Positions 4,542-40,922 are shown, counted from the stretch's first letter. The stretch: 41,141 nucleotides of DNA from an uncultured Bordetella sp. (GCA_964402495.1 CAYODB010000006.1:1-41141), one strand, 5' to 3'. Numbers and translations are program-made. The notes: generated by a model from the sequence alone, not told the origin.

Positions 4542-5634
4542 TTCCTTCCTCCTCGCCGTAATACAAGTTTGCGCCGCTTGCCGAATTGAAAAAATGCAGC
4601 TTTTCCTGCTTGAATGAAAACCGAACCACCGTATCGATGCCCAGTTCGAGCCGGGCTGGCACGGTAGCTTTGATCAGGCACTCCCCTGCCCGAAGGGTGA
4701 CCACCTTCTCCACGCCCTGATTCTCCACCCCATGAACCCGGGCTTCAATAGCTTCGTTCGCTCCGACCGCGATATCCTCCGAGCGGATCCCCAGGGTCGC
4801 CGGTCCCGAGAGCCTGGCGGCCTTGCCGCCCGCGGCCCGGTCCACAGGTACTTCGAAAACGCCCGGGACGATGATCGCCCGACCGCCACTGACATTGGCC
4901 GGCAGCAGGTTCATGGCGGGCGAGCCCACGAAGGTCGCCACAAACGTATCGTGCGGCTGGTTGTAGATCTGCTGTGGGGTGCCCACCTGGATGATATGGC
5001 CCTGGTTGAGAACGCCGACCTTGTCGCCCATGGACATGGCTTCGACCTGATCGTGGGTGACATACAGAAAAGTCGCCCCGAGCTTCATCTGCAGGTCCTT
5101 GAGCTCCGAACGCAGGAGTTCGCGCAGCTTGGCGTCCAGGTTGGACAGGGGTTCATCCATCAGGAATACGCGCGGTTCCCGGACAATGGCGCGACCGATG
5201 GAAACACGCTGCATCTCGCCGCCGGACAAGCGGTCGGTCTTGCGTTCCATCAGGTGTTCGATGCGCAGGGTCTTCGCCGCTTTCGCCACGCGCTGGTCCA
5301 TCTCCTGCTGCGACATCCGCCTCACTTTGGACTTGAGGGGAAACTCCAGGTTCTGTTTCACCGTGTAATGCGGATACAGCGAGTAATACTGGAACACCAG
5401 CGCCACGTCGCGTTCGGCGGCGCTCCAGTCCTTCACGTCCTGTTCGGCAATCGAAATGCTGCCGCTGTTCGGGCTGTCCAGGCCCGCGATCAGTCGCAGG
5501 GTGGTGGTCTTGCCCGCGCCGGTCGGGCCGAGCAGCACGAAGAACTCGCCGTTGGCGATGTCGAGGTCGAGGTTGTTCAGCGCCGCATGGCTGCCGTACT
5601 TTTTGGTGACGTTATCGAGTCTGACGCTGGCCAT
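4534..5634 (-). CDS. CUT1 (MalK-like) ABC transporter ATP-binding protein
   Basis: GPTGAGKTT, LSGGEMQR, LMDEPLSNLD, YVTHDQVEA, C-terminal TOBE-like region. Confidence 0.95.
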   Translation of the reverse strand: MASVRLDNVTKKYGSHAALNNLDLDIANGEFFVLLGPTGAGKTTTLRLIAGLDSPNSGSISIAEQDVKDWSAAERDVALVFQYYSLYPHYTVKQNLEFPLKSKVRRMSQQEMDQRVAKAAKTLRIEHLMERKTDRLSGGEMQRVSIGRAIVREPRVFLMDEPLSNLDAKLRELLRSELKDLQMKLGATFLYVTHDQVEAMSMGDKVGVLNQGHIIQVGTPQQIYNQPHDTFVATFVGSPAMNLLPANVSGGRAIIVPGVFEVPVDRAAGGKAARLSGPATLGIRSEDIAVGANEAIEARVHGVENQGVEKVVTLRAGECLIKATVPARLELGIDTVVRFSFKQEKLHFFNSASGANLYYGEEEGNG

Positions 5635-5745: not shown

Positions 5746-6854
5746 CATAGCCTGATGTGCAGCGACTCGCCGGTACGGGTGCTGAAGAAATGGGTTTGGG
5801 TTTCGTCCAGCCGGGCCCACACCACGTCCCCGGCGTTCGCCACGTAGCCGGACGGCGTGCGCGCGCGCAGCATCTGCCTGCCGAACTTGAGGTCCACGAT
5901 GTCGTAAGGCCCCAGGGGTTCGATAATGTGTGCCTCGACGGGGACATAACCGCTGGTCTGGGAGCGAGCGACGAGAATACCCTCCGGACGGATGCCCACG
6001 GCCAGTTCGTCCTCCGAATGTTTTTTGCCGACGATCATGGCGTGCAACTTCTGCGGAAACGGCAGGGTCGCGTCGTTGTCGCCGAGCACTACCTGGGTGC
6101 CGTTGTCCGCCGGCCGCACCACCCCGCTGACCACGTTCATGATCGGGCTGCCAATGAACTGGGCGACGAACAGGTTGGCCGGATGCTGGTAGACCTCGGT
6201 AGGCGTTCCCACCTGCTGCAGGATGCCTTCGTTCATGATCGCGATCCTGTCGGCCATGGACATGGCCTCCACCTGGTCGTGGGTCACGTACACGGTCGTC
6301 GCCTCGTTCTCGATGTGCAGGCGCTTGAGTTCCGTGCGCATTTCCTCGCGCAGCTTGGCATCCAGCGCACCGATCGGCTCGTCCATCAACAGCGCCTTGG
6401 GCCGGCGCACCAGCGCCCGCCCAATTGCGACCCGCTGCAGGTCGCCGCCGGACAGCGCGCCGGGGCGTTTGTTGAGCAGGTGCTCAATCTTCAGCGCCTT
6501 CGCCGCTTCGCGAACACGCCGGTCAATGGTCTCCTTCGACTCGTTGGTGGCGCGCAACGGAAAAGCGATGTTCTCGTAAGAGGTCAGGTGCGGATACAGC
6601 GCATAGAGCTGGAATACGAATGCGATGTCGCGGTCCGCGGCTTGCAGGGCCTGAACCGGCTTGCCGTCGATCAGTATGTCACCCGTATCGATATCTTCCA
6701 GGCCGGCAATGGCGCGTAACGTCGTGGTCTTGCCGCAGCCGGACGGCCCCAGCAGCACCACGAACTCGCGATGCCTGATCTCCAGGTTGAGCTTCCTGAT
6801 GATGTAGTTGTCGCCGAAGTATTTTTCGACGTCTTTGAGGACGATGTCGGCCAT
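5745..6854 (-). CDS. CUT1 (MalK-like) ABC transporter ATP-binding protein
   Basis: GPSGCGKTT, LSGGDLQR, LMDEPIGALD, YVTHDQVEA. Confidence 0.95.
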   Translation of the reverse strand: MADIVLKDVEKYFGDNYIIRKLNLEIRHREFVVLLGPSGCGKTTTLRAIAGLEDIDTGDILIDGKPVQALQAADRDIAFVFQLYALYPHLTSYENIAFPLRATNESKETIDRRVREAAKALKIEHLLNKRPGALSGGDLQRVAIGRALVRRPKALLMDEPIGALDAKLREEMRTELKRLHIENEATTVYVTHDQVEAMSMADRIAIMNEGILQQVGTPTEVYQHPANLFVAQFIGSPIMNVVSGVVRPADNGTQVVLGDNDATLPFPQKLHAMIVGKKHSEDELAVGIRPEGILVARSQTSGYVPVEAHIIEPLGPYDIVDLKFGRQMLRARTPSGYVANAGDVVWARLDETQTHFFSTRTGESLHIRL

Positions 6855-9136: not shown

Positions 9137-9230
9137 GCGCGAAGGGGGAAGGCGTGAAGAGGGAAGGGTGTAATGCTTTCAAGCGTCTTTACCCTTCACG
9201 CCTTCCCCCTTCACCCTTCCCCCTTCACGC
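9137..9230. repeat. Short inverted-repeat element with purine-rich heptamer-like arms
   Basis: gaagggggaaggcgtgaag (9141-9159) is the perfect reverse complement of 9194-9212; more degenerate units lie either side. Confidence 0.8.
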
Positions 9231-9243
9231 CGTCCTCGCAACA

Positions 9244-12898: not shown

Positions 12899-13729
12899 AT
12901 GGCCGCAATCGAAAGAAAGGCAATCCTCGATAAATTCCGCGACATGGTGAAGCGCCGCGTGCCCATCGTCGGCGGCGGCGCGGGAACCGGCCTGTCCGCA
13001 AAATGCGAAGAAGCCGGCGGCATCGACCTCATCATCATCTACAACTCCGGCCGCTACCGGATGGCGGGCCGCGGCTCGGCCGCGGGTTTGCTGGCGTATG
13101 GAAATGCCAATCAGATCGTCAAGGAAATGGCCGTGGAAGTCCTTCCGGTCGTGAAAAAAACCCCGGTTCTGGCGGGCGTGAATGGTACCGATCCATTCGT
13201 GCTGATGCCGCAGTTCCTGGCCGAGCTCAAGGTTCTGGGATTTTCCGGCGTGCAGAACTTCCCCACCATCGGCCTGTTCGACGGCGTGATGCGCGCCAGC
13301 TTCGAGGAAACTGGCATGGGCTATGGGCTCGAAGTGGACATGATCAAACTGGCCCATGAGCAGGACCTGCTGACCACGCCCTATGTCTTCAACGCCGCGG
13401 AAGCGGAAGCCATGACGGCCGCCGGTGCCGACATCGTCGTCGCGCACATGGGCGTCACGGTTGGCGGCACCATCGGCGCCTCCTCGGCGAAAAGCCTGGA
13501 CACCTGCGTCAAGGAAATCGACGCCATCGCGCAAGCCGCGATGCGCATCCGCAAGGACGTGATCGTGCTATGCCACGGCGGCCCCATCGCCTCACCGCAG
13601 GATGCCGACTACATCCTCAAGTGCACGCAAAACTGCCACGGCTTCTATGGTGCGAGCAGCATGGAGCGCCTGCCAACCGAAGTCGCTTTGACCGAACAGA
13701 CCCGCAAGTTCAAGGCTATTCAATTCTAG
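12899..13729 (+). CDS. TIM-barrel phosphoenolpyruvate-hydrolase-like / TIM-barrel signal transduction family protein
   Basis: [62 protein letters not shown]. Confidence 0.9.
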
Positions 13730-13730
13730 A

Positions 13731-13890
13731 TCTTGAACCACGGAGGACACGGAGGAGAACAAGAAAGATTTCCCCAAAAGGGTGATGTGGTATATGACCC
13801 TTTGCAGACACGGCAAACAATCTGCAGATATTTTTCCCGGCATGTTTTCCTGATTTTCTCCGTGCTCTCCGTGTCCTCCGTGGTTCAAGA
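13731..13890. repeat. CRCRRAG-family inverted-repeat element, complete copy
   Basis: Perfect 24-bp arms tcttgaaccacggaggacacggag (13731-13754) and its reverse complement (13867-13890). Confidence 0.9.
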
Positions 13891-13912
13891 ACTAACAAAG
13901 GGAGAGATAGAA

Positions 13913-20324: not shown

Positions 20325-20434
20325 GGGCAGGCTCTTGATGGGCGAAGTGCGTGATTATGCGGGCTCGGGGCTACGGTTGCCAGCGCAGCCAGCGCCGGGT
20401 GCTTCATCAGTCAGTCACTTAATCCTGAAGCTTC

Positions 20435-20589
20435 TCACCGCGAAGGCGCAAAGGACGCAAAGAACAGCAGTACGGCAAACAACATCAGGTGACACGCGAT
20501 TCTACGAGCACGCATGGTCAATTTCTTCAGCCTGGGTTCTTCCGATTCTTTTTTTGATCTCCTTTGCGTTCTTTGCGCCTTTGCGGTGA
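20435..20589. repeat. CRCRRAG-family inverted-repeat element, complete copy
   Basis: 28-bp arms 20435-20462 and 20562-20589, 26/28 complementary. Confidence 0.88.
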
Positions 20590-20687
20590 AAGGATTCCGG
20601 TTCGAATCAGGAAACTGATGCGCTGCCCGGCGCCGCGGCTTTGTGCTCTAATTCCGTCGTAACCGCAGTGAAACCCACCAAGAGGAA

Positions 20688-26549: not shown

Positions 26550-27797
26550 TTATATTGGCGGGGCCTTCCAGAATTCACCGTTTTTCATGATTGCGCGCAG
26601 TTTTTGGCGATCCTGCAGGATGGCAACACTGGCCAGGGGGTCGCCGTCGACCAAAAGCAAGTCGGCCAGGTAGCCGGCCCTGACCTGGCCGATACGGTCT
26701 CCCATGCCCATGATCTCGCCGCCCAGCCGGGTGGCGGCGATGATCGCCTCCATCGGCGTAAATCCAAGGAGGTTGACGAAGTGCTCGATGTCGCGCGCGT
26801 CGGTGCCCACGGGGTTCCAGGAGAATCCATAGTCCCCGCCTATCAGGATACGCACGCCGCGCCGGTGCAGTTCGCGCATGCTTTCGATTCCGCGATCGAG
26901 TTCATGGGCGACACCCCGCTGCTCGGCGATCTGGCGCGTGATGCCCCAGGGCCCGGCTTCGTAGAGGGTCGTATACAGATGGCCGAGAACGGGTCCGACG
27001 AAAACCTCGTCCTTTGCCTCCTCGAGGGCATCCATCGCTTCCTCGTCCAGCAAGGTGGCGTGGTAGATCACCTGCACGCCGTGGCGCAGGCACATTTTCA
27101 CGGACTCGGCGCTGCGGGCATGGGCAGCGATCCGCTTGCCGTGCGCATGGGCGACGTCGCAGACCGCCGCCACTTCGGCTTCATTCATCACGGTCGTATC
27201 GGCCGGCGAGTGCGGGGTCCCCGCGTCGCCTGACACGTTGATCTTCAGCGTGTCCGCGCCTTCACGCACCATTGTCCGCGAGAACTTGCGAAATTCCGCG
27301 GGTCCGTCGCAGACCACCGCGAAATTCTCCCGGTACATGTGGTACAGGCGCACGTCGCCGAGCCCCGCGGAGACCGTCATTTCCGGGCTTGCCGCCAGGG
27401 TCCTGGGTCCGGGAACGGCGCCGCCGTCGATTGCGTTGCGCAAAACGATGTCCAGCCGCGGCTTGGCCGCGGCCGCGCTGAAACAGGAGGTGAATCCGGC
27501 ATCGAGCATGCGCCGCGCGTTCTGTGCGGTTTTCAGCATGTGTTCTTCCGGCGGAATGAAGCCCAGCTCCACGGAAAGTGCGACATCGGTGAACGTCAGG
27601 TGGGAATGCGCTTCGATCAGGCCGGGCATCAGCGTCGCGCCCCGGCCGTCAACGACCGCTGCATCGCGGACCACGGTTTGCGCGCCTTGCGGCATTACAG
27701 ACTCTATACGCTCGCCGCGCACCAGCACGCTGCCCCGGAATGGCGGCGCGCCGCTGCCGTCGAAGATGTTGACGTTGGTGAACAGCGTCGCGCCCAT
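26550..27797 (-). CDS. Metal-dependent amidohydrolase (COG1228), paralog 2
   Basis: Start MGATLFTNVNIFDG; MPGLIEAHSH, AAHARSAESVK, GGDYGF; closely similar to 3267-4541. Confidence 0.9.
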   Translation of the reverse strand: MGATLFTNVNIFDGSGAPPFRGSVLVRGERIESVMPQGAQTVVRDAAVVDGRGATLMPGLIEAHSHLTFTDVALSVELGFIPPEEHMLKTAQNARRMLDAGFTSCFSAAAAKPRLDIVLRNAIDGGAVPGPRTLAASPEMTVSAGLGDVRLYHMYRENFAVVCDGPAEFRKFSRTMVREGADTLKINVSGDAGTPHSPADTTVMNEAEVAAVCDVAHAHGKRIAAHARSAESVKMCLRHGVQVIYHATLLDEEAMDALEEAKDEVFVGPVLGHLYTTLYEAGPWGITRQIAEQRGVAHELDRGIESMRELHRRGVRILIGGDYGFSWNPVGTDARDIEHFVNLLGFTPMEAIIAATRLGGEIMGMGDRIGQVRAGYLADLLLVDGDPLASVAILQDRQKLRAIMKNGEFWKAPPI

Positions 27798-29580: not shown

Positions 29581-29722
29581 TCACCGCAGAGGACGCGGAG
29601 GAAAGGCAAGAGCAAGAAAGCAAGTTTGGGGGATGCATCTTATTGGCTCACGATCCATTCCAGAGAACGTTGGCCGTTCCTCGCTTTTCTTTTCCTCCGT
29701 GTCCTCTGCGTCCTCCGCGGTT
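29581..29722. repeat. CRCRRAG-family inverted-repeat element, complete copy
   Basis: accgcagaggacgcggagga (29583-29602) vs tcctctgcgtcctccgcggt (29702-29721), 18/20 complementary. Confidence 0.85.
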
Positions 29723-29755: not shown

Positions 29756-30163
29756 CTATTGAGCTGCGGAAGGGTACAGGAGCTTGAAGGTGCCGGTGGC
29801 CTTGGCGAGCAGCGTGCCGTCCTCGCCGCGCAATTCGCCTTCGGAAAAAATCAGCGAGCGGCCTGCGCGCTGCGCACGCCCTTCTCCGAGAACGGGGCCC
29901 ATCGCGGCCGCGATGAAGTTCACCTTCATTTCCACCGTGAGGGCGCCATTGCAGGTTTCATCCAGTGCCCGCCCCGCGCTGGCCAGCGCCACGTCGAGCA
30001 TGGTCATCAGCACGCCGCCATGCACCGAACCCCAGCTATTCGCCAGTTCCGGACGAGGATCCAGGCGCAGCCTTACCAGGCCGTCGCCCTTTTCCAGGAT
30101 GCGGATTCCAAGATGCTCGACGAAGGGTACATGGATGTTGAACCCTGCTTTCTGCGCGGCCAT
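29756..30163 (-). CDS. PaaI family thioesterase
   Basis: NSWGSVHGGVLMTMLDVA, TVEMKVNF, AKATGTF. Confidence 0.92.
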   Translation of the reverse strand: MAAQKAGFNIHVPFVEHLGIRILEKGDGLVRLRLDPRPELANSWGSVHGGVLMTMLDVALASAGRALDETCNGALTVEMKVNFIAAAMGPVLGEGRAQRAGRSLIFSEGELRGEDGTLLAKATGTFKLLYPSAAQ

Positions 30164-30169
30164 CCGTGC

Positions 30170-30946
30170 CTACATCGAGACCAGGCCGCCATCGACCGCC
30201 ACGATCTGGCCGGTGATGTAGGCGGAGGCATCGGACGCCAGCAGGACTGCCAGTCCTTTCAAATCGAAGTCCGTGCCCAGACGCTTCATTGGCGTCATTT
30301 CCATGATGATCTGCTCGGCCCGGTCGATCATGCCCTGCGACATTTTAGAGGGAAATACACCCGGCGCGATGGCATTCACGGTGATGCCATGGTGCGCCCA
30401 TTCCACCGCCAGCGAGCGGGTGAAGTTGACCACCCCACCCTTGCTGGCGTTGTAGGCGATGGTCGGCATCATGCGCGGATCGGTCCCGACCAGGCCGGCG
30501 ATCGAAGCGAGATTGATGATGCGTCCGTATTTGCGCGGAATCATGCTGAGCTTGCCCACCGTCTGGCTCATCAGGAACACTGCTGTCAGATTCAGATTGA
30601 TGATCTTGTACCAGGCGTCCAGCGGATGGTCCTCTGCCGGCGCACCCCATGCCGCCCCGGCATTGTTGACCAGGATATCGATCTGCCCGTGGCTTTTCAG
30701 GATCTGCTCCACCATCGGCTTCACGGAATCGGTGTCCTGCAGGTCGTTGGTGACCGCGAGCGCATCGATGCTCATGCCGTTCAGGTGCGCCTTCGCCTCC
30801 TCCAGTTCACCGGCCTTGCGTGCGGTGATCACCACTTTGGCGCCCATCTCCCCGAGGGCTTCGGCCATTTGCAATCCCAGACCGCGCGATCCACCTGTAA
30901 TGAGCGCGGTTCTTCCGGACAAGTCGAACAATTTTTTGACGTTCAT
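30170..30946 (-). CDS. SDR family oxidoreductase (gluconate 5-dehydrogenase-like)
   Basis: TGGSRGLG, NNAG, YNASKGG, VNAIAPG, VDGG. Confidence 0.93.
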   Translation of the reverse strand: MNVKKLFDLSGRTALITGGSRGLGLQMAEALGEMGAKVVITARKAGELEEAKAHLNGMSIDALAVTNDLQDTDSVKPMVEQILKSHGQIDILVNNAGAAWGAPAEDHPLDAWYKIINLNLTAVFLMSQTVGKLSMIPRKYGRIINLASIAGLVGTDPRMMPTIAYNASKGGVVNFTRSLAVEWAHHGITVNAIAPGVFPSKMSQGMIDRAEQIIMEMTPMKRLGTDFDLKGLAVLLASDASAYITGQIVAVDGGLVSM

Positions 30947-30967
30947 ATATTCCCCTCAAGAGACGCA

Positions 30968-31001
30968 TTCACCACGAAGGACACGAAGGTACGCAAAGGA
31001 G
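30968..31001. repeat. Left arm of the CRCRRAG family at the left island border
   Basis: ttcaccacgaaggacacgaaggtacgcaaaggag; no convincing partner within the usual ~200 bp. Confidence 0.75.
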
Positions 31002-31303
31002 TTCAAGAACACAACCGGCGCGGAAGCTAAAAAGAAATCGCAGCTATGTACATGAATTAGCGCACGCCAAGACCCGCTTTGGTGTCGACGCGTTGGTATA
31101 AAAAAACACGCGCGCCTACTCCGCGCGATTTGTTGACTTTCCTCTTTGTCTTCGCCTTGCGTGGGGCTGGTGGCACACCGATAGCAACAATGCTCCCAAA
31201 TCAGCGGCACATGTCGATTAGTCAACATGTCTTCCTGTCGTTTACCTGGACCTGGCTGCCGCACCAAGCGCTCGTCTAGCGCTGCGAGAGGCGATGCAAC
31301 CCC

Positions 31304-31888
31304 TTAGTCGCCTTTATTAGGCTTCAATGTGCGCAGCAAGTCCTGCAAGGCCCGAGCATCAGTAGGTTCCTTCGCCAACAGCATGCCCTCAAATTGGAGC
31401 GCATTTTCAGAGAAAAGGATTACTGGGTAGGTGCGCTTGCCTTCCTCTGGCAGATTTGGCTTAGAGGTTCCCTGGATGAATTTTCTAACTACTGTTGTCT
31501 CCATGACGACTGGCTCAGACCCTGCCGGGTACAAGCGTAGCGTGAACGGACCACTGGTTAGACCAGGCGTCGCGACACTCCAGAGACGCCAAAAATAATG
31601 GGTGCCATACGAACCACGCATTTCGGTTAGTGACGCTTCTATGAAGCCGGTTTTTTCTTCCGCGTATAGAAAGATAGTTTCATGCTCTGGCAAAAAGACC
31701 ATCGCTAGGTTGCGACCATCCTTGCCATGTATTGCGTATGTGGTTGGTTCCGGTGGAGGAGACCAAACTGTGACGATGCAGCCCTTAAGGCCAAAAAAAA
31801 CGATAACCACAACAAACGCGGCGATTCCGACTTTAGGAAGGATCGACACTATTTGCAATTGGCCACGCTTGGCGAAACTCAAGTGCAC
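31304..31888 (-). CDS. Hypothetical protein with N-terminal membrane anchor
   Basis: 194-aa ORF with hydrophobic VGIAAFVVVIVFFGL segment; start uncertain. Confidence 0.6.
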   Translation of the reverse strand: MHLSFAKRGQLQIVSILPKVGIAAFVVVIVFFGLKGCIVTVWSPPPEPTTYAIHGKDGRNLAMVFLPEHETIFLYAEEKTGFIEASLTEMRGSYGTHYFWRLWSVATPGLTSGPFTLRLYPAGSEPVVMETTVVRKFIQGTSKPNLPEEGKRTYPVILFSENALQFEGMLLAKEPTDARALQDLLRTLKPNKGD

Positions 31889-31900
31889 TCCTCAACGCGG

Positions 31901-32107
31901 CTACGTCGGATTCACATGGTTCATGTGTGCGAACTCCCCTTGTGCGAGAGCGTCGGGCTTCTTCAACTTATACCGTAGTCGCGCGTTCTCGGAGGAAGTT
32001 AGCATTTCGGAATCCCATGAGGCATTCGGCGAAGGCGAGGGCGAGGGCTGGAAGTACTTTGCGCGATACCTTTCTGCTGTCTCGGTATTGTGATCCCTTA
32101 ACCTCAA
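31901..32107 (-). CDS. Short hypothetical ORF, possibly a gene fragment
   Basis: 68 aa, TTG start overlapping the upstream stop by 4 nt. Confidence 0.3.
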   Translation of the reverse strand: MRLRDHNTETAERYRAKYFQPSPSPSPNASWDSEMLTSSENARLRYKLKKPDALAQGEFAHMNHVNPT

Positions 32108-32655
32108 CTTCCTCCCCTGCGATCATCTGGCCTCCCAGCAAGAACCCATCTGACCATCTCTAATATACACACCATCGTTTGCGATGGCGGAGCCTTTAGC
32201 TTTTCTATGGCGAGCGGATCGTTGTGGATTGACTTGGCAACAAGCTCGGCGTCAACGATGTTCTTGCCGTTAACTTCAATGCCGAACGCCTCCAAGTCTT
32301 CCGGCGTGGTAATCATGTCCATGTATTTCGGGTCGTTGACTCCGAGTGCGTCAGCATAAGCGTTCATTTCGCGCGCGAGCTTTTGTTCCCGTGCCTGCTT
32401 TTCTTTTTCTTCCTCCGTCAACTCCGAATAGGGTTTCCGGTGATTTGAATAATGGTGGCGATTCTGAAATAGACCGTCGTACATTTTCCGTTGAAGCGCC
32501 GTCGCGCCACCATCTTCCGCCATTTCTTCAGCAGTGAGATAGCCATGCTCATGCAGCTTCGCAACCATTTCCCTCAGGCTTAAGCCATCGTCCCTGAGCA
32601 CGAATCCTACACCCGCGATACAGACATTCTTCATTGCCTTCGCCTCCTGACTCAT
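32104..32655 (-). CDS. Hypothetical protein, possibly a fragment of a mobile-element protein
   Basis: 183 aa, charged and helical (EEEKEKQAREQKLAREM); no recognised motif. Confidence 0.5.
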   Translation of the reverse strand: MSQEAKAMKNVCIAGVGFVLRDDGLSLREMVAKLHEHGYLTAEEMAEDGGATALQRKMYDGLFQNRHHYSNHRKPYSELTEEEKEKQAREQKLAREMNAYADALGVNDPKYMDMITTPEDLEAFGIEVNGKNIVDAELVAKSIHNDPLAIEKLKAPPSQTMVCILEMVRWVLAGRPDDRRGGS

Positions 32656-32725
32656 CCAGGTCGTCCAATTCGACCAGGTGACCGTGAGCGCCGCCTCTGA
32701 TGGAGACCGGAGCAGCCCTTAAGGT

Positions 32726-33433
32726 TCACTGACTACCGTCCCGTGACTTTTTCTTCATCAGTAGATGCACCGCTTCGATAACCAATAGGGGATGGCCGCG
32801 AGGGCATATTAGTCGAGCGAAATTCCAGCCTGGGCGACCACGATCGTCCTTTGGAACAAGTGCTCCGGTAGGAAAGGTCTCCCGGCATTGAAGGCACCGG
32901 ACCTTTCCCTCGCCTGCGCGGATGAGGTCGTCTGCAACGTACTTAAACCTCGTCCATGCAGATGGAACCGGGGTAAGGTGGTGTTGTGCCTCGTTTCTGC
33001 TTTGAACCCAATTAAGTAGGGCGCCTTCCTCATCGCGCGCTAAATGCGGGTGCTCTTGAAGCTTCTCAAGGAGAAAGCGTTCAACATTTGATGCGTGAAA
33101 ATGGAATTCACCGAATGTTTCATCGCCTTCTTCGTTCTCCGGCTTGTACGTGACAATGGCTTCGCAAGCAGGTGGCGTCGTCCAAAGCTGATCTCGTGTG
33201 CGCGTACGCGCCGCCAAATCATAATCGTCCTCAAAGAGCGTGCTTGGGCTAAGAAGCGCCTTTGGCCTAAATGCCGTCAGTGGCCATAGGACAGAGAAAA
33301 AGATGAACGTCGTCCAGATTTGAAGTTTATTGAAGTGCCAGTCGTAGCCATCCAGCCGACGAAGCATGTGCCACCCAAGGCGCGACGCGACGAGCAATGC
33401 TCCGGCAAGGTAGGTGTACAAGATGGCAGTCAT
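32726..33433 (-). CDS. Hypothetical membrane protein with C-terminal zinc-ribbon-like motif
   Basis: Two N-terminal hydrophobic segments; CLQC...CPRGH near the C-terminus. Confidence 0.65.
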   Translation of the reverse strand: MTAILYTYLAGALLVASRLGWHMLRRLDGYDWHFNKLQIWTTFIFFSVLWPLTAFRPKALLSPSTLFEDDYDLAARTRTRDQLWTTPPACEAIVTYKPENEEGDETFGEFHFHASNVERFLLEKLQEHPHLARDEEGALLNWVQSRNEAQHHLTPVPSAWTRFKYVADDLIRAGEGKVRCLQCRETFPTGALVPKDDRGRPGWNFARLICPRGHPLLVIEAVHLLMKKKSRDGSQ

Positions 33434-33469
33434 CGCTTCGTCTGTGCCGGCTTCGTTCAATCGGGTGAC

Positions 33470-33907
33470 TTACGTTTGCCCCAAACGCAATAGGTCTCGG
33501 ATTAGCGCATTCATTGACGAAGCGCTGGTCAGTTTGGCACGGTTCATTTTTCCACCCATCACGGCTCTGTTGACGCGATCCTTGAGGACATAGGGCAGCT
33601 TTGCATCTGCTGCAGACAGGCGAAAATGCTCCTCTGCCCGTTGTTCAAGAGTCCAGTAGTAGAAAGGAAACTGTCGTCGCACTTTCTCTGCGGCTTCCTC
33701 TTCGGAAAGACCGTCGTTCTGTATGAACTTCTGAAGCGCGCCCACAAGGAAAACGTTGTCAGTTTTCTCAAAGAGCTTACAGTCAGCGAGCGACAAGCTT
33801 GCCCACCACTCGTCGTCCTCGGTGCGAACGAGCGCCTTGTCTTCTGGGTGAATTTCACAGGTAGGGGCAGGCTGCTTGGGCCCAAATAGCTTAGCAAAGA
33901 ATCCCAT
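33470..33907 (-). CDS. Hypothetical protein
   Basis: MGFFAKLFGPK start after a strong AGGAGAGG RBS. Confidence 0.7.
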   Translation of the reverse strand: MGFFAKLFGPKQPAPTCEIHPEDKALVRTEDDEWWASLSLADCKLFEKTDNVFLVGALQKFIQNDGLSEEEAAEKVRRQFPFYYWTLEQRAEEHFRLSAADAKLPYVLKDRVNRAVMGGKMNRAKLTSASSMNALIRDLLRLGQT

Positions 33908-34012
33908 AGTTTCCTCTCCTTGTTTCCACATGGCGCTGACGGGCTCAGACTAACAACGAGGCGCTCTTCACGAATGAGGTTCGTTAGAGTCTTGCTATCG
34001 AGCAAGCGGCCT

Positions 34013-34354
34013 TCAACTGGTAGATACAACGTCGACGTATGAAGCGCAGCCCACGACTGTTCCTACGACTATCGCGAAGATAGCGCGCTTATGCAAAGGC
34101 AACACTGTTGGAGACTCCTTTGGAGGGAGACCGGCGAGAGTGATGGCGAACCAGACAGCTGTAAAAAACGGCGGGTTAATTGAACTGCCCAATATGCGAT
34201 GCAAGAGCATATTTGCCACAGCGAGCACGCCGACAAAGACTACCCATGGCCAGCCGGAGTGATAGGACCCGAGATTGTTAAGGCTGACCCTGGCAATAGT
34301 AAAGAGGACGAAAGTACCAACGAGCACTTTTGCGACCCCGTAGATGAAGTCCAT
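34013..34354 (-). CDS. Hypothetical small multi-pass membrane protein
   Basis: MDFIYGVAKVLVG start after GGGAG; about four hydrophobic segments. Confidence 0.6.
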   Translation of the reverse strand: MDFIYGVAKVLVGTFVLFTIARVSLNNLGSYHSGWPWVVFVGVLAVANMLLHRILGSSINPPFFTAVWFAITLAGLPPKESPTVLPLHKRAIFAIVVGTVVGCASYVDVVSTS

Positions 34355-34401
34355 GCGCTGCTCCCACAAACTACATTTAAATAGTGCGTCGAAGCAATAC
34401 G

Positions 34402-34659
34402 TCAGTCCTTCCTGCGTTCCACCTTGTTTATGCGGCTTCCTGGCGGGAGAGACTTCAGCCATTCAACGAGGTCATCATAGCTAATTTGGGTCTCCGTGGA
34501 CTCGCACCCAAAAATATGTTCGAAACGAGTCGCCAGACGCAATCGCTTGAGGAGTCTGGTTGTTTCGCCGAGAATCGTCTTGCGCTGCTCAGGTGGAAGT
34601 TTTGCGAGACGGTCTTCGTGTTCCTTGCTGATGCTGTCGGATTCCAATTTATCCCCCAT
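34402..34659 (-). CDS. Hypothetical protein (85 aa)
   Basis: Protein-like ORF, but the ATG sits just after a strong hairpin with no RBS. Confidence 0.4.
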   Translation of the reverse strand: MGDKLESDSISKEHEDRLAKLPPEQRKTILGETTRLLKRLRLATRFEHIFGCESTETQISYDDLVEWLKSLPPGSRINKVERRKD

Positions 34660-34663
34660 TAGG

Positions 34664-34685
34664 CCTGGCGGCTTTCGCCGCCAGG
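34664..34685. terminator. Strong GNRA-capped hairpin after the small peptide ORF
   Basis: CCTGGCGGC-GAAA-GCCGCCAGG (minus strand); no long U-tract. Confidence 0.5.
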
Positions 34686-34692
34686 GTTGTGA

Positions 34693-34776
34693 CTAGCTGA
34701 AGAAGAGCATGAGCAGCGCCAGCATGTACTGGAACTGCCTGTAGCTCAACTTCAACTTGAGCGTAAGCTCAATCAT
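34693..34776 (-). CDS. 27-aa hydrophobic peptide, candidate type I toxin-like small protein
   Basis: MIELTLKLKLSYRQFQYMLALLMLFFS; GGGAG 5 nt upstream of the ATG; structured leader. Confidence 0.5.
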   Translation of the reverse strand: MIELTLKLKLSYRQFQYMLALLMLFFS

Positions 34777-35091
34777 GGTTACTCCCATGAATGAGCGACC
34801 GCCCAGGCCTGGAACGATCGCGGTTTTATCCGTGGCCGTTCTTGGGGTGGCTACGATGGTGACCGGGCGCAGTGCGCACTGCGTGCCGGGCATCTTGGCC
34901 GCGCGTCGCGTAGCGGACCTTCGCTACGAAGGAATATCCCCGTGGGCGCCCAAGAGATCGGGCGTCGGCAGGGATTCCAATCTTTAAGCGTTTATGATTT
35001 TACGCTTGCGTGGAAGAAATTCCCGCGGAAAAAGTCTTATCTCCGGATGCGCGACCTGCCTGTTCTCGCTCTCATTTTGTTCAAGTTGGTT

Positions 35092-35132
35092 CTCCTTCGC
35101 GTACCTTTGCGTCCTTTGCGTTCCCCGCGGTT
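35092..35132. repeat. Right arm of the CRCRRAG family at the right island border
   Basis: ctccttcgcgtacctttgcgtcctttgcgttccccgcggtt; inner 25 nt are 22/25 complementary to 30977-31001. Confidence 0.75.
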
Positions 35133-35134
35133 AT

Positions 35135-36943
35135 TTAGAACCATCCGTCCTGCATCTCCAGCGTCGTGCGATCCAGGCTGGTGAGCAACTCGTGCCATTG
35201 CCTGGTCTTCGGCAGTTCCCAGCGGAAAAACCAGGCACAGGCCTGCAGTTTGCCCTGGTAGAAATCCTTCTCTTCCGCATCTGCGGCGCCGACTTTCTTC
35301 ACGGCAACCAACGCCTGCCGCAGCCAGATCCAGGACAGTATGGTGTGTCCGACGAGATCAAGGTAGACCGATGCATTCGCCAGGCCGAGGTCGACTTCGC
35401 CACGGCCGGTCACGCAGAGCAGGTTGCGCGTAACGTCCATGACCCGATCCAGGGCTTCATTCAGGGCCTCGCCGCTGCGGCGCAACTCCTCCGAATCGCA
35501 GGCCCGGGCTTCACGCACCACGCCATTGATCTCGCGCGCGAGCAACTGGATTCCGGCGCCGTCGGCCATGCCGGCCTTGCGGCCCAGGAGGTCGATGGCC
35601 TGGATGCCGTTGGTGCCCTCGTGGATCGGATTGAGCCGGTTGTCACGATAGAACTGCTCGACGGGATACTCGCGGGTATAGCCATAGCCGCCGTGCACCT
35701 GGATCGCCAGGCTGTTGGCCTCAAGGCAGTAGTGCGAGGGCCAGGCCTTCGCGACCGGCGTCAGGATTTCGAGTAGCAGGCTGGCATTGCGGCGCGCCTT
35801 TTCGTCTTCGGAGGTATGGGCTTCATCCACCAGGCTCGCGCAGTACAGGCAAAGCGCCAGCGCGCCTTCGACATAGGCTTTCTGCGCCAGCAACATGCGC
35901 CTCACGTCGGCATGTTCGATGATCCTCACCGGGGGCAGGCTCGGATCCTTGCCGCCGGGCAAACGGCCTTGGGGCCGCTGGCGGGCGTAGTCGAGCGCAT
36001 GCAGATAGCCGGTATAACCCAGAACGGTCGCACCCATGCCGACACCGATGCGAGCCTCGTTCATCATCTGGAACATATACGCGAGTCCCTTGTCTGGTTC
36101 GCCGATCAGTTCCGCCCAGGCGCCGCCCTGCTCGCCGAAATTCAGCACGCAGTTGGTGGTGCCGCGGAAACCCATCTTGTGGTTGAGCCCGGCCAGCGCC
36201 ACATCGTTGCGCTCCGCGCGCGAGCCGTCGTCGTTGACCCTGAATTTAGGAACGATGAAAAGGGAAATTCCCTTTACGCCGGCCGGCGCACCCTTGATGC
36301 GCGCCAGCACCAGGTGAATGATGTTTTCGGAGAGCTCATGGTCGCCACCGGAGATCCACATCTTGTTGCCCGTGATGCGATAACTGCCGTCGCCCTGCGG
36401 ATGCGCCGTCGTGCGCACATCGCCAAGCGAAGAGCCTGCCTGAGGCTCGGACAGGCACATCGTACCGAAATAGCGTCCGTCCAGCAGGGACGGCAGGTAG
36501 CGCTGCCTCTGCTGCTCCGTCCCAAAGGCACGGATCAGGTTGGCGTTGGCGATGGTAAGAAAGGGATAGGCGGCGGTCGATACATTGGCCGCATTGAACC
36601 AGGCGAAACAGGCCTGCGCGACGGTCCAGGGCAGTTGCATGCCACCGAGTTCGAAGTCCTGCGACGCCGACATGAAACCCGCCTTGCGGAAGGCTTCCAG
36701 CGCTTCGCCCACCTCCGGGATCATTTCGACCTTGCCGCCGACAAAGTGCGGTTCGTTGAGGTCGGCCTTGCGGTTGTGGGGAGCGAATTTTTCTTCGGAG
36801 ATTCTCGCTGCGGTTTCGAGCGCGGCGTCGAACGTTTCTCGCGAATGATCCGCGAACCGCGGCCGCTGCGTCAGCGACTCGATGTCGAGGAATTCGTAGA
36901 GAACGAACTCCATGTCCCGGCGGTTCAGCAATTTCGACTGCAT
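35135..36943 (-). CDS. Acyl-CoA dehydrogenase (long ~600 aa type)
   Basis: GTMCLSEPQAGS, GNKMWISGG, HKMG, MMNEARI, QVHGGYGY, IHEGTNGIQ. Confidence 0.95.
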   Translation of the reverse strand: MQSKLLNRRDMEFVLYEFLDIESLTQRPRFADHSRETFDAALETAARISEEKFAPHNRKADLNEPHFVGGKVEMIPEVGEALEAFRKAGFMSASQDFELGGMQLPWTVAQACFAWFNAANVSTAAYPFLTIANANLIRAFGTEQQRQRYLPSLLDGRYFGTMCLSEPQAGSSLGDVRTTAHPQGDGSYRITGNKMWISGGDHELSENIIHLVLARIKGAPAGVKGISLFIVPKFRVNDDGSRAERNDVALAGLNHKMGFRGTTNCVLNFGEQGGAWAELIGEPDKGLAYMFQMMNEARIGVGMGATVLGYTGYLHALDYARQRPQGRLPGGKDPSLPPVRIIEHADVRRMLLAQKAYVEGALALCLYCASLVDEAHTSEDEKARRNASLLLEILTPVAKAWPSHYCLEANSLAIQVHGGYGYTREYPVEQFYRDNRLNPIHEGTNGIQAIDLLGRKAGMADGAGIQLLAREINGVVREARACDSEELRRSGEALNEALDRVMDVTRNLLCVTGRGEVDLGLANASVYLDLVGHTILSWIWLRQALVAVKKVGAADAEEKDFYQGKLQACAWFFRWELPKTRQWHELLTSLDRTTLEMQDGWF

Positions 36944-36980
36944 TTCGGTTTTCCTTCAGCCGCCGGAACAAGCAACCCCT

Positions 36981-37176
36981 TCACCGCAAAGGCGCAAAGG
37001 GAAGAGAAAGGTACGCAAAGGAGAGCCTGACATAACAGCAAGTAACGTCCCGAATTGTCGAAACCCAGCAAACAGGGGCACGTTCGACACAGTTCATATC
37101 CGCTATCGTGCGTACTTACGCCCTGCCTTTCTTTGCGTTCCTTTGCGTCCTTTGCGCCTTTGCGCCTTTGCGGTGA
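36981..37176. repeat. CRCRRAG-family inverted-repeat element, complete copy
   Basis: Perfect 20-bp arms tcaccgcaaaggcgcaaagg / cctttgcgcctttgcggtga, with extra ctttgcg units on the right. Confidence 0.9.
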
Positions 37177-38365: not shown

Positions 38366-38385
38366 TTCAAGCCTCCAATAAAATC

Positions 38386-38564
38386 TGAACCACGGAGGAC
38401 ACGGATACCCTCGCGCAGCGTGGAGTACCCTTTTAGATCACGGAGGAAAATGAGGCATGACAGCACCGGACACTTGCCGGAAATCGCCCAGTGGATGCAG
38501 CGATATCGTTCACGTCTGTTTCGTCCTTTCCCTTCTCCGTGCCCTCCGTGTCCTCCGTGGTTCA
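38386..38564. repeat. CRCRRAG-family inverted-repeat element with a micro-insertion in the left arm
   Basis: Perfect 20-bp arms tgaaccacggaggacacgga / tccgtgtcctccgtggttca; 30-bp insert at 38406-38435. Confidence 0.88.
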
Positions 38565-38568
38565 AGAA

Positions 38569-40668
38569 CTAGCTGTTAAATTTCTTGCCTTCGGCTGCAA
38601 GCCTCTCGAGCAGCGGCGCCGGCTTCCAGAATTCGCCATGCTTCTCGTGAAAGCGCTTCACCGAAGCCAGCACTTTGTCCAGGCCGACGGTATCGGCATG
38701 GAACATCGGCCCGCCGCGGAAACGCGGAAAGCCGTAGCCGTAGATGTAGACGATGTCGATGTCGCTGGCGCGCAGCGCGATGCCTTCCTCGAGGATCTCC
38801 GCGCCTTCATTGACCAGCGCGTAAATGCAACGCTCGAGGATTTCCTGGTCGCTGATCTGGCGGCGCTGGAGACCGGCTTCCTTCGAAGCCTTCACGATCA
38901 GTTCCTCGACCACCGGATCGGGAATCGGGTTGCGGTTGCCGGCTTCGTAACGGTACCAGCCGGCGCCGGTCTTCTGGCCGAAACGGCCGAGCTCGCAGAC
39001 CTGGTCCGCCACTTTCGAGTAACGCAGGTGCGCCGGCCGCGTTGCTGCCTGGCGCTTGCGGATGTACCAGCCGACGTCTAGCCCGGCCAGGTCGCCGACC
39101 CGGAATGGGCCCATGGCGAAGCCGAAATCCTCGATGACCTTGTCCACCTGTTGCGGCAGTGCGCCTTCCTCGAGCAGGAACCCTGCTTCGCGGAAATAGC
39201 CGTGCAGCATGCGGTTGCCGATGAAACCGTCGCACACGCCGGCGACGACGCCGACTTTCTTGATGGCCTTCGACAGCTTCAACGCCGTGGCGAGCACGTC
39301 CTTGCCGGTCTTGTCGGCCCGCACGACTTCCAGTAGCTTCATTACGTTCGCCGGACTGAAGAAATGCAACCCGAGTACGTCCTGCGGACGCGAGGTCGCG
39401 GCGGCAATCTCGTTCACGTCGAGCGTGGAAGTGTTGGTGGCGAGGATGGCTCCCCGCTTGGCCACCTTGTCGAGTTTTTCGAACACCTGCTTCTTGACGG
39501 CCATGTCCTCGAATACGGCCTCGATGATGATGTCCGCATCCTTGATATCCTCGTAGCTGGTGACACCGGTGAACAGGGCCATGCGCTTGTCCATGGCTTC
39601 CTGGCTCAGGCGGCCCTTGGCGACCGTGGCGGCGTAATTTTTGCGAACGATGCCCAGCCCCTTGTCCAGTGCCTCCTGGTTCACTTCGAGCATTTTCACG
39701 GGAATGCCGGCGTTGACGAAGTTCATCGCAATGCCGCCGCCCATGGTGCCCGCGCCGATCAATGCCGCGGATTTTATTTCGCGTACCGGCGTATCGTCGG
39801 CTACGTCCGGAATCTTGCTGACCTGGCGTTCGGCGAAGAACAGGTGCCGCAGCGCGCGGGATTCATCGGTTTTCACCAGCTTCTCGAACTGCTGGCGCTC
39901 GAACGCGACGCCTTTGGCAAAGGGCAGGCTGGTCACCGCTTCTACGCAGGAAGTAATCGCCAGGGGCGCCGGGAAACCCCGCCACGCCTTGGCGATGCGC
40001 TCGCGTGCCGCCGCGAAGAAAGCCTCCGCCGGCTGGTCCGGCACGGCATCCATCTGACTGGCACGGCGCACGCCCTTGCCTTCCTTGATGAGCCGGTTGG
40101 CATAGGAGATCGCCGCGGCACGCAGGTCGCCTGTGACAACCTCATCCACGAGACCGGACTCTTTCGCCTTTTCGCTGGAAATCGGATCGCCGGTCACCAT
40201 GAAATCCAGCGCCTTCTCCACTCCCATCAGTCGCGGCGCGCGCTGGGTTCCGCCGGCACCCGGAAGGATGCCTAGCTTCACTTCGGGCAGGGCGATCTGG
40301 GCGCCGGTCAGCGCGATCCGGTAGTGGCAGCCCAGGGCCAGTTCCAGTCCCCCGCCCATGGTGGGGCCGGATATCGCCGCGACAATCGGCTTGGTGACCG
40401 TGTCCATGTAGGCCAGCGCGTCGGGCAGGGTCGCCTTGCCGGGCTCGTAAGGCTTGCCGAATTCGCTGATGTCGGCGCCGCCGCTGAAATTGCGCCCGCC
40501 GCCGATGATCACGAGCGCGCGGATGTGGTGGTCGTGGTCGCCTTCCTTGAGGGCATCGAGGATGCCCTGAACCACGCCCTTGTTCACCGACAGCGCGTTG
40601 ACCGGCGGATTGTTGAGCGTGATGACGCCTATGCTGCCCTGCTTCTGGTACTCGACGAGACTGGTCAT
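38569..40668 (-). CDS. Bifunctional enoyl-CoA hydratase / 3-hydroxyacyl-CoA dehydrogenase
   Basis: NPPVNAL, GGGLELAL, PEVKLGILPGAGGTQR, IGAGTMGGGIA, EAVFE, NTSTL, HFFSPAN; ATG 40668 after GGAGG. Confidence 0.95.
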   Translation of the reverse strand: MTSLVEYQKQGSIGVITLNNPPVNALSVNKGVVQGILDALKEGDHDHHIRALVIIGGGRNFSGGADISEFGKPYEPGKATLPDALAYMDTVTKPIVAAISGPTMGGGLELALGCHYRIALTGAQIALPEVKLGILPGAGGTQRAPRLMGVEKALDFMVTGDPISSEKAKESGLVDEVVTGDLRAAAISYANRLIKEGKGVRRASQMDAVPDQPAEAFFAAARERIAKAWRGFPAPLAITSCVEAVTSLPFAKGVAFERQQFEKLVKTDESRALRHLFFAERQVSKIPDVADDTPVREIKSAALIGAGTMGGGIAMNFVNAGIPVKMLEVNQEALDKGLGIVRKNYAATVAKGRLSQEAMDKRMALFTGVTSYEDIKDADIIIEAVFEDMAVKKQVFEKLDKVAKRGAILATNTSTLDVNEIAAATSRPQDVLGLHFFSPANVMKLLEVVRADKTGKDVLATALKLSKAIKKVGVVAGVCDGFIGNRMLHGYFREAGFLLEEGALPQQVDKVIEDFGFAMGPFRVGDLAGLDVGWYIRKRQAATRPAHLRYSKVADQVCELGRFGQKTGAGWYRYEAGNRNPIPDPVVEELIVKASKEAGLQRRQISDQEILERCIYALVNEGAEILEEGIALRASDIDIVYIYGYGFPRFRGGPMFHADTVGLDKVLASVKRFHEKHGEFWKPAPLLERLAAEGKKFNS

Positions 40669-40693
40669 TGAACCTCCAAAATCGGAAAACCCG

Positions 40694-40877
40694 GAACCAC
40701 GGAGGGCGCGGAGGGGCACGGAGGAAAAGCGAGGAGAAAAATGGGAATGGATTGCGATATGAGCGCCATTCAGGATCTGGGTGTCCGGATAGCATGGATC
40801 GTACAGCCGACAGCACTCTTACTTCGTTCGTATCTCTCTCTTGTCGTTCTCCGTGCTCTCCGTGCCCTCCGTGGTTC
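40694..40877. repeat. CRCRRAG-family inverted-repeat element, complete copy
   Basis: gaaccacggagggcgcggaggggcacggag ... ctccgtgctctccgtgccctccgtggttc. Confidence 0.87.
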
Positions 40878-40922
40878 AATGTTTGTTCAAGCGTGCTGCG
40901 CGACAGGCATGTCGCGCCAATC

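Follow-up and report, generated by a model that had tools for sequence, protein, structure and literature searches.

The 23S rRNA intervening sequence (IVS) found in Coxiella burnetii, as described in PMC4990558, is 428 nt long and consists of a 28-bp terminal stem closing a loop that contains the S23p open reading frame (ORF); its GC content is below that of the genome, it is cut by RNase III, its distribution is sporadic and it is regarded as selfish (PMC4990558). Here we describe a family of bracket elements, in which inverted arms of tandem octamers enclose a short core, and one member of this family located between the genes of an acyl-CoA dehydrogenase (ACAD) and a short-chain dehydrogenase/reductase (SDR) in an uncultured Bordetella sp. 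The DNA analysed (the window) was a stretch of 41,141 nucleotides (GCA_964402495.1 CAYODB010000006.1:1-41141), which is the entire contig C6 of a metagenome-assembled genome (MAG) designated G000. The arms of this element are 4.1 kb apart and enclose an island of accessory genes, which is probably foreign DNA inserted once into the loop of an element that was already there.

Other systems share individual features with this locus. The short extragenic palindromic repeats known as REP and REPIN sequences, which go together with RAYT transposases, occur in hundreds of copies and form hairpins between operon genes; REPs are known targets of insertion sequences. Miniature inverted-repeat transposable elements (MITEs) and their autonomous parents have terminal inverted repeats and exist in ORF-less short and ORF-bearing long forms. 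Integron arrays are made of co-oriented, mostly orphan ORFs without mobility genes of their own, and are characterized by imperfect inverted repeats, the integrase IntI, an attI site and an attC site for each cassette. Typical att cores are longer than 7 nt. The element at the ACAD/SDR junction had originally been predicted to act as a capture site or carrier for foreign genes, possibly as a cassette platform working without an integrase.

The arms and the island between them

The island is located in a beta-oxidation operon on the minus strand, which comprises a 716-aa ORF and the genes of a thiolase, a FadE-type ACAD, the SDR and an alpha/beta hydrolase, and the island ORFs are co-oriented with this operon. 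A repeat search paired 30977-31001 with 35092-35116, two 25-nt stretches that are 88% complementary (22/25), and direct reading showed each of the three mismatches to be A/G. The left arm begins 21 nt past the SDR start codon, whereas the right arm, in the longer form in which it was first drawn, stops 2 nt short of the ACAD stop codon. All these values agree with the original prediction, and so does the absence of a convincing partner near either arm: within 260 nt the best complement scored 9 for the left and 7 for the right arm, both below the score of 13 from which arms were counted as paired (the paired arms in the window score 14-26). Both are among the few multi-unit arms of G000 that have no local partner. 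The sequence AAGGTACGCAAAGGAG, when up to three mismatches were allowed, was found seven times in the window against 0.22 expected, and none of 100 shuffled sequences reached this number. A similar variant near 37009, mentioned earlier as a reservation about the pairing, is indeed present as a second exact copy at 37008-37023, but it is part of an intact neighbouring element that has its own partner (Table 1).

It could be argued that the two arms belong to two separate, decayed elements, each of which once had a partner of its own, and that their pairing over 4.1 kb is coincidental. Arms made of the same unit are complementary to each other genome-wide, so that a match of 22/25 would by itself say little, and the stretch 31140-31165, which had been named as a possible decayed partner of the left arm, is pyrimidine-rich and faintly arm-like. 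This stretch was covered by the scan for local complements, however, and the best scores of that scan were those given above. The decisive evidence comes from the same junction in related genomes.

ACAD orthologues were fetched from 19 relatives (62-92% protein identity), of which 17 belong to the same genus. In all 19 orthologous loci the SDR gene is directly beside the ACAD gene, with a gap of 19-493 nt (the SDR orthologues adjoining ACAD in same-genus genomes are 78-93% identical), and none of seven island proteins had a match in these loci. A regular-expression search detected both arms in the spacers of six loci, one arm in three and none in ten. The spacers of G010 (19 nt) and G024 (26 nt) are bare, and these element-free junctions are too diverged from the filled ones for a duplication outside the arms to be read; other relatives have elements with other arm types at this position (CACGAAGG, CACAGAGA). 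In G022 (locus L021) and G011 (L009) an intact element of about 170 nt is found at the same junction, and both its CGCAAAGG-type arms and its core agree with those of the window. With the island left out, the spacer of the window (206 nt) aligns end to end with those of G022 (76%, 197 columns) and G011 (80%, 187 columns); the spacers of G002 and G023, in which other sequences are found, are 61-62% identical to it. Because arms and core are contiguous in G022 and G011, the island interrupts the core of one element, of which 37 nt are left on the left side and 71 nt on the right side of the island. This element has the two arms as its cognate ends, and with the flanking cores joined in two relatives, an origin from two decayed elements is most improbable. 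Adjacent genes or a short element in relatives had been predicted, and both were found; the third alternative, different cargo between the same arms, did not appear at this junction in any of the 19 loci.

Folded as RNA in the sense of the operon, the G022 element is predicted to form a 29-bp stem (-76.1 kcal/mol, z -3.9) with a loop of about 100 nt, and none of 200 shuffled sequences folded as well. In the tree of the locus G022 and G011 are sisters (support 97), and G000 groups with G023 (support 100). The junction element is present in G000, G011 and G022 and not in the sisters G023 and G002; it is 76-80% conserved, whereas the third codon positions of the adjacent SDR gene are 59-64% conserved. 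To judge from these sequence comparisons, the element would be either under constraint or laterally exchanged at this site.

Another peculiarity was seen at the same junction in four relatives, L009 (G011), L016 (G007), L020 (G016) and L024 (G015), where a pseudo-duplicate of the first 29-45 SDR codons precedes the real SDR start. The pseudo-duplicate and the real start are separated by about 65 nt of conserved sequence with internal palindromes (GCCGAAGCCC...GGGGCGCCCTCGGC), which in L006 (G023) is present without the pseudo-duplicate. This arrangement looks like a different small element, which on entering a gene restores the 5' end of that gene.

The sequence AAGAAAT is present at both homology breakpoints, which defines the island proper as 31039-35013, and the empty elements of the relatives have a single run similar to AAGAAAT at the matching position. 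A 7-mer was shared by random pairs of 20-nt windows in 3,579 of 200,000 trials (1.8%); the 7-nt repeat is suggestive, and its exact placement at both breakpoints adds weight to it. The boundaries are thus inside the arms and not outside them. The idea that the island fills the space from arm to arm has to be modified: it does lie between the arms, but the foreign block is smaller, with remnants of the element core on both sides. A 9-nt direct repeat, CTTGCGTGG, was noticed by eye near 31157 and 35006.

The GC content of the eight 500-nt bins of 31001-35000 is 0.514-0.564, compared with 0.58-0.67 (about 0.61) in most of the window. The GC bins, the ORF scan and the family scans agree with the earlier description of the island as a compositionally foreign block of about eight co-oriented ORFs without integrase, transposase or tRNA. 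Specifically, the tRNA scan of the window was negative, no transposase domain was found in the island by Pfam (Y1_Tnp was the transposase family examined genome-wide), and of the 15 matches to the tyrosine integrase family PF00589 in G000 none is on contig C6. At the ends of the island a repeat search gave no terminal inverted repeats that were convincing. Neither a second copy of the island nor paralogues of its genes were found in G000. Among 37 genomes of the genus the island DNA had a match in G000 alone and none in the other 36 (one of them, G049, is unpublished).

G000 comprises 4,089,555 bases in 406 contigs, with an estimated completeness of 100 and an estimated contamination of 6.28. 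Given that the window is a whole contig of such a fragmented MAG with 6.28% estimated contamination, and that repeats of this family are often found at contig ends, a foreign contig might have been spliced between two repeat copies in the metagenome assembly. However, contigs from a different assembly pipeline cover the locus without a single difference, those of run X1 at 29994-31633 and 31635-35535, and those of run X9 at 29994-31239 and 34982-35311, so that both junctions are crossed; X1 may be the source sample, and X9, which is not marked as such, possibly belongs to the same campaign. The depth is alike on the island and its flanks (12.9 versus 10.7-15.2 in X1). Pieces of the island and of the flanks also occur together, with 0-2 differences, in runs X10 and X12, where the junctions are not covered; X12 is a sediment metagenome of a different study, year and habitat. 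Moreover, joined together, the core remnants on the two sides of the island make up one orthologous element, which would not be expected of an artefact. Since independent contigs bridge both junctions, the arrangement is not an assembly chimera, and an artefact of this kind is very unlikely. A joint skipping 31039-35013 was not seen in the contigs of X1, X9, X10 and X12, but contigs drop rare variants, and this is no evidence of absence. Microbial-mat runs are among those that hold the stretch, and none of its 21 run entries is recorded as RNA.

Origin of the island

Taking into account the empty site in two relatives, the boundaries of the island and its absence from the other genomes of the genus, we think it likely that an ORF-less element already existed and that its dispensable loop received foreign DNA in a single insertion. 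The ACAD/SDR spacer would first have held an ORF-less hairpin element of about 170 nt with a core of about 100 nt. A foreign block of 3,975 nt would then have entered this non-coding, lower-GC core, once and in the lineage of G000, and the core would have tolerated the insertion because it was dispensable. Duplication of the 7-nt target AAGAAAT in this event would point to a staggered cut or to a microhomology-guided join, made by an enzyme that the island itself would not encode. The block would have delivered eight co-oriented accessory genes together with a terminator-like hairpin of its own, and it may have had an effect on the expression of the SDR gene. The arms, now 4.1 kb apart, would be passive relics and not agents of the insertion.

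Several observations weigh against this interpretation. A microhomology-mediated deletion would leave the 7-nt repeat too, so that the polarity of the event, presumably gain and not loss, rests on parsimony and composition. Low GC, in turn, is no sure mark of foreign DNA here, as a GC content of 0.45-0.52 is also found in ordinary cores and cargo of the element family. Neither terminal inverted repeats nor a transposase or integrase was found in the island to account for the insertion. Genes are present between the arms of other elements of the family, which leaves room for a role of the element, and an empty-site or excised form was not encountered in the contigs, although contigs alone would miss rare ones.

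With a repeat signature that is symmetric for insertion and deletion, the event could also be read in the opposite direction: the island-bearing element would have come first, and the short forms of G022 and G011 would be products of deletions between AAGAAAT repeats. Because G022 and G011 are sisters, a single ancestral deletion would be sufficient, and ORF-bearing and ORF-less forms do coexist in the family. The island would have to predate the split of G000 from G022/G011, however, and the ACAD proteins of the two sides are 82-83% identical, which implies an old ancestor, whereas the GC content of the island is still about 9 points below that of the genome. In addition, the 36 other genomes of the genus have no DNA trace of the island, and no relative of its proteins i244 or i153 was found in the genus. 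We regard this order of events as quite improbable and retain a single insertion as the preferred explanation.

The role of the element has to be judged against the rest of its family. Strict arms, with at least two tandem CRCRRARG units, occur 252 times in G000 and 14 times in the reversed-sequence control, and 70 of the 81 neighbouring +/- pairs of strict arms are spaced 80-180 nt. A looser definition gave 432 arms (131 in the control), of which 282 pair with a complementary arm no more than 260 nt away, at a median inner distance of 111 nt (144 '+' arms, 5th-95th percentile 83-158 nt). These 282 locally paired arms form 167 elements, that is, about 170 copies in G000. While 25 of the 167 cores resemble another core of G000 at E<=1e-4, 142 do not, and with cores that are mostly unique the elements do not represent a single copied MITE. 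The family extends through the genus, though unevenly: the counts of a 17-nt arm pattern in five relatives were 149, 194, 138, 61 and 5, compared with 0-3 in the backward control.

Complete elements occupy six spacers of the window (13726-13894, 20424-20600, 29585-29719, 36974-37176, 38377-38572 and 40687-40887). In the downstream half of the window each of the spacers that follow or separate the ACAD, thiolase and 716-aa genes has an element, placed near the ends of the genes, and the arms of the spacer elements are of few octamer types (CACGGAGG, CGCAAAGG). As RNA, a whole spacer with its element may be structured and possibly processed. Small repeats of a second kind were noticed within bracket elements or their arms, at 38405-38440 of the window and on two further contigs of G000 (C94:9664-10178 and C292:995-1376). 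Their forms are ATACCC..GTACCCTTTTAG and the palindrome ATACCCTACGTGC..GCACGTAGGGTAT, and the two contigs share the module GTAGTTGCGATTTGACCTGACGG..CTGTCAGATTTAAA.

Cognate arm pairs separated by more than 300 nt were surveyed for cargo, completely in G000, and in the relatives among the matches listed for one arm pattern. All four genes of the GxxExxY family (TIGR04256 / PF13366) in G000 are tightly enclosed by cognate arms, one of them truncated at a contig end. Such genes are present in 29 of the 37 genomes of the genus (28 of 36 without the unpublished G049). Inverted arms with a score of at least 20 were found in 23 of 29 GxxExxY loci fetched from other genomes of the genus (L038-L066, from which the G049 locus was left out) and with a score of at least 14 in 28, as compared with 8 and 118, respectively, of 600 random 350-nt windows. 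The elements bearing GxxExxY genes span 435-630 nt, and their cores do not align with those of ORF-less elements that have the same arms. In a literature search, which did not cover subscription journals, nothing was found on GxxExxY genes being carried by elements of this kind.

Other genes are enclosed in the same manner. An element with CGCAGAGG/CGCGGAGG arms in G020 (L073, G020:C20:67180-68057) contains the gene of an HNH endonuclease of 224 aa whose repeats are of the homing-endonuclease-associated type (PF18780, 6e-18; PF01844, 1e-10). In G000, CACGGAG arms at C29:24188-25331 enclose a 318-aa ORF (GC 0.48) whose sole match is weak and sub-threshold, to a Cas4-like PD-(D/E)XK family (20.9 bits, cut-off 65). 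The three TIGR02436 genes of G000, which encode the four-helix-bundle '23S IVS protein', are all located between inverted tandem arms, of the types CTAGGGG, GACGAGA and GTGAAGG. An ORF-less element with GTGAAGG-type arms is present in the window at 9141-9235. Two apparent long-range pairs, on C40 (3111/6785) and C184 (1288/3927), proved to be made up of arms from separate elements, and the genes in between have the GC content of the host. The remaining long-range pairs of G000, apart from the one around the island, either have cores of 300-1,100 nt, with a single gene or nested repeats, or are unrelated neighbouring elements. The island is the only multi-gene cargo among the approximately 170 elements of G000.

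These findings bear on the idea of the element as a carrier, in which the arms are generic handles and the contents are swapped by recombination between arms, or are loaded after a nuclease (GxxExxY or HNH) has cut the loop in trans. Similar octamer arms do surround unrelated contents, as the unique cores demonstrate, and the frequent location of GxxExxY genes between arms, the HNH gene of G020 and the 318-aa ORF on C29 all fit such a mechanism. A GxxExxY element in G044 (L060) has arms nearly identical to the junction arms around an unrelated core, and a 29-nt stretch of the junction right arm is identical to its right arm. The occurrence of the junction element in G000, G011 and G022 but not in the sister genomes, together with its high conservation, would fit lateral exchange. 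In contrast, every other cargo that was seen is a single gene, and the core around the island is collinear with empty elements and has its own 7-nt repeat, which indicates insertion into the core and not an arm-to-arm swap. Furthermore, no alternative cargo was found at the 19 junctions, no arms at any of seven loci with homologues of island genes, and no skipping joint in the four runs. We consider the carrier model unlikely, and none of the observations calls for an active role of the element. What remains of the original prediction is that cognate arms enclose the island and that arms have varied contents elsewhere; capture or carriage of the island by the element found no support, and neither did an active cassette platform, the island being a sole multi-gene cargo that interrupts an ORF-less core.

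One may go further and regard the bracket elements as a genus-wide, IVS-like class of hairpins, whose loops serve as integrase-free loading bays that move DNA between loci and species, with the near-identical arms as portable handles for recombination or with cuts in the loop by nucleases of the elements themselves (GxxExxY, HNH). This is a speculative extension, to which we assign little probability. If it were correct, such a loop would usually take up a single selfish nuclease gene, and with the island a multi-gene load, transcribed by a core operon, would have been caught for the first time.

On the preferred explanation, a single insertion into the loop, spacer elements offer sites where foreign genes can settle in a conserved operon without breaking a gene, and the relatives keep the exact empty site to the base. 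The wider result is that GxxExxY genes, the HNH gene of G020 and the IVS-protein genes of G000 are found in the loops of hairpins with tandem-repeat arms, while ORF-less kin of these hairpins fill operon spacers. For PDDEXK_3, the GxxExxY family, the function is given as unknown in a survey of PD-(D/E)XK proteins, as far as its entry for this family goes (PMC3424549). The system bears on the role of these widespread small proteins, on the spread of IVS-like elements and on the processing of operon mRNAs at stems.

Genes of the island and features of the window

The coordinates of the arms, the island, its genes and the flanking features are listed in Table 1. Nine ORFs of the island were scanned for protein families, although eight count as island genes, and none of the nine had a match over threshold in Pfam, PHROGs, PADLOC or NCBIfam. 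Four of the products, i194, i183, i153 and i244, are conserved but rare proteins, whereas i149, i85, i68 and i66 have no support beyond being open. As i149 and i85 share 61 nt, i149 probably starts at a point downstream of the one given.

Table 1. Features of the ACAD/SDR junction and of related elements (positions refer to the window unless a contig of G000 is named)
Feature	Position	Strand	Remarks
SDR gene, 258 aa, intact	30170-30946	-	Pfam adh_short 3.5e-55; downstream of the island in operon direction
Left arm, three tandem 8-9-mers: CACGAAGG A CACGAAGG TA CGCAAAGG AG	30973-31001	+	No local partner; homologous to the left arms of the intact G022 and G011 elements
Left core remnant	31002-31038		Aligns to the G022 (L021) and G011 (L009) cores up to 31038; ends in AAGAAAT copy 1
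Direct-repeat copy 1, AAGAAAT	31032-31038		Sequence read
Island, 3,975 nt, GC about 0.52, eight co-oriented ORFs	31039-35013	-	Absent at 19 orthologous loci
Terminator-like hairpin, 6 G-C pairs, then T-run	31109-31127	-	Consensus scan; inside the island, downstream of its final ORF
i194, predicted N-terminal membrane helix and eight-stranded lipocalin-like beta-barrel (VtrC/ToxS-like fold)	31304-31888	-	AlphaFold2 mean pLDDT (predicted local distance difference test) 94.2
i68, 68 aa	31901-32107	-	ORF scan; no family match
i183, soluble orphan protein; 176-aa form in gene calls elsewhere	32104-32655	-	Sub-threshold DUF7179 match
i244, hydrophobic N-terminal segments (by eye), C-terminal Cys/His cluster	32726-33460	-	Sub-threshold zinc-ribbon match
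i153, orphan helical protein; 145 aa in gene calls elsewhere	33470-33931	-	23 clusters among 5.8 billion proteins
i149, about four hydrophobic segments by eye	34013-34462	-	Far sub-threshold NCBIfam match, 19.4 bits, cut-off 295
i85, small ORF	34402-34659	-	ORF scan; no family match
i66, small ORF, coding status uncertain; hydrophobic segments by eye	34693-34893	-	ORF scan; no family match
Direct-repeat copy 2, AAGAAAT	35014-35020		Sequence read
Right core remnant	35021-35091		Aligns to the G022 and G011 cores from 35021 onward
Right arm, three tandem units: CCTTCGCG TA CCTTTGCG T CCTTTGCG	35092-35120	-	Originally extended to 35132
FadE-type ACAD gene, 602 aa	35135-36943	-	Pfam Acyl-CoA_dh_N, _M, _1, _C; upstream of the island in operon direction
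Intact neighbour from the same family, located between ACAD and thiolase genes	36974-37176		Own partner; holds the second exact AAGGTACGCAAAGGAG (37008-37023)
GxxExxY loci of G000	C5:4085-4557, C61:4288-4719, C294:126-574, C264:4571-4753		
TIGR02436 loci of G000	C324:2992-3315, C27:1847-2149, C221:827-1090		

For i194, 129 representatives were found at E<=0.001 among 1.84 billion proteins. Its AlphaFold2 model was most similar in VIA-align to 5kev_B (VtrC; Z 8.3, root mean square deviation 2.5, 96 aligned residues), with ToxS at Z 6.0, both of which are lipocalin-like barrels of the periplasm; according to the program's own warning, a Z level such as 8.3 can reflect just a common arrangement. 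Foldseek returned nothing at E<=0.001 with the same model. The i183 protein falls into 11 clusters among 5.8 billion proteins, which apart from its own are 54-70% identical to it, and the Atlas gave no usable match. For i244 six clusters, its own included, were found in the same 5.8 billion proteins, and C189, C192, C219 and H223 are invariant in their alignment (A1). Atlas scores for i244 were 0.76 at best, and a search of 185,579 species genomes and viral contigs with its profile detected no relative; the profile did find one metagenome contig of 1.6 kb, which has no shared neighbours. Several island genes are predicted to encode membrane or periplasmic proteins.

The AlphaFold2 model of i153 is poor (pLDDT 62) and unsuited to structure search. 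Relatives of i153 were found in six of the 185,579 species genomes, all of them outside this genus and belonging to Proteobacteria or Desulfobacterota (Sedimenticola, Gallionellaceae, Desulfobacteraceae, Methylomicrobium and two further proteobacterial MAGs). These homologues are located in variable regions, beside Vsr, helix-turn-helix, resolvase, STAND NTPase, TIR, NucS-like and HNH genes. At the six loci none of the other island genes was found beside them, and on this ground the island appears to be a mosaic of sporadically distributed accessory genes and not a conserved module. One contig of 108,735 nt carries identical i183 and i153 proteins. Blastn searches of the island against 72,556 plasmids and 50,697 phages gave no match, and neither did tblastn with i153.

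In the window an Rfam scan detected no family and no rRNA, and a promoter scan of 30500-35500 detected no sigma-70-like site on the minus strand. Unrelated to the island, diverged coding duplications (71-82%) were noted between 3355-3654 and 26611-26910 and between 4999-5574 and 6225-6794, which indicates that the contig has paralogous genes.

Comparison with known systems

In architecture the bracket elements resemble 23S rRNA intervening sequences, and excision by RNase III might be imagined here by analogy only. Common to both, as far as the account in PMC4990558 extends, are terminal inverted repeats closing a loop, a single small ORF that is optional, low GC content and sporadic distribution. 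The sizes are also similar, an IVS with its ORF measuring about 0.4 kb and the ORF-bearing elements described here 435-630 nt, and a stem of about 28 bp in the IVS can be compared with the 29-bp stem of the G022 element. It is a further likeness that all three TIGR02436 genes of G000, of the S23p/four-helix-bundle kind known from IVS loops, are inside inverted tandem-repeat arms, though these are of other unit types. Unlike IVSs, the elements are located in spacers of protein-coding operons and not in helices of 23S rRNA, their arms are tandem octamers and their commonest cargo is the GxxExxY PD-(D/E)XK nuclease. No multi-gene insert of 4 kb figures in the IVS account of PMC4990558, and no wider search for such inserts was made.

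REP and REPIN sequences resemble the elements as many-copy, hairpin-forming repeats between operon genes. The elements differ from them in having unique cores, which are not copied, and arms that are tandem-repeat arrays. A REP-RAYT system was rejected, as none of the six Y1_Tnp loci of G000 has paired arms within 2.5 kb. A transposon or MITE with the arms as its terminal inverted repeats was likewise discarded: no transposase was found in the searches described above, and the sequence of whole elements is not shared, similarity being limited to 25 of the 167 cores. With 142 of 167 cores resembling no other, the short forms, unlike MITEs, are not copies of one deleted parent.

The island shares with integron arrays its co-oriented orphan ORFs and the presence of imperfect inverted repeats as landmarks. 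In contrast to integrons, the inverted repeats bracket the whole block and not each gene. An integron cassette array was dismissed, there being no IntI-type integrase on the contig and no shared inverted-repeat or attC-like site in the gaps of 0-82 nt between the island ORFs. Integrase-mediated insertion was also set aside, since none of the nine island ORFs matched a recombinase over threshold and no PF00589 match is present on C6. As to the sites used by integrative elements, the window contains no tRNA, and the 7-nt repeat flanking the island is shorter than typical att cores.

The island resembles an ordinary genomic islet, inserted illegitimately or by a transposase acting in trans, in its low GC content, its orphan genes, its short direct repeat, its restriction to one lineage and its own terminator. 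It differs from such an islet in its position, the loop of a structured repeat element, and in being co-oriented with the conserved beta-oxidation operon that surrounds it.

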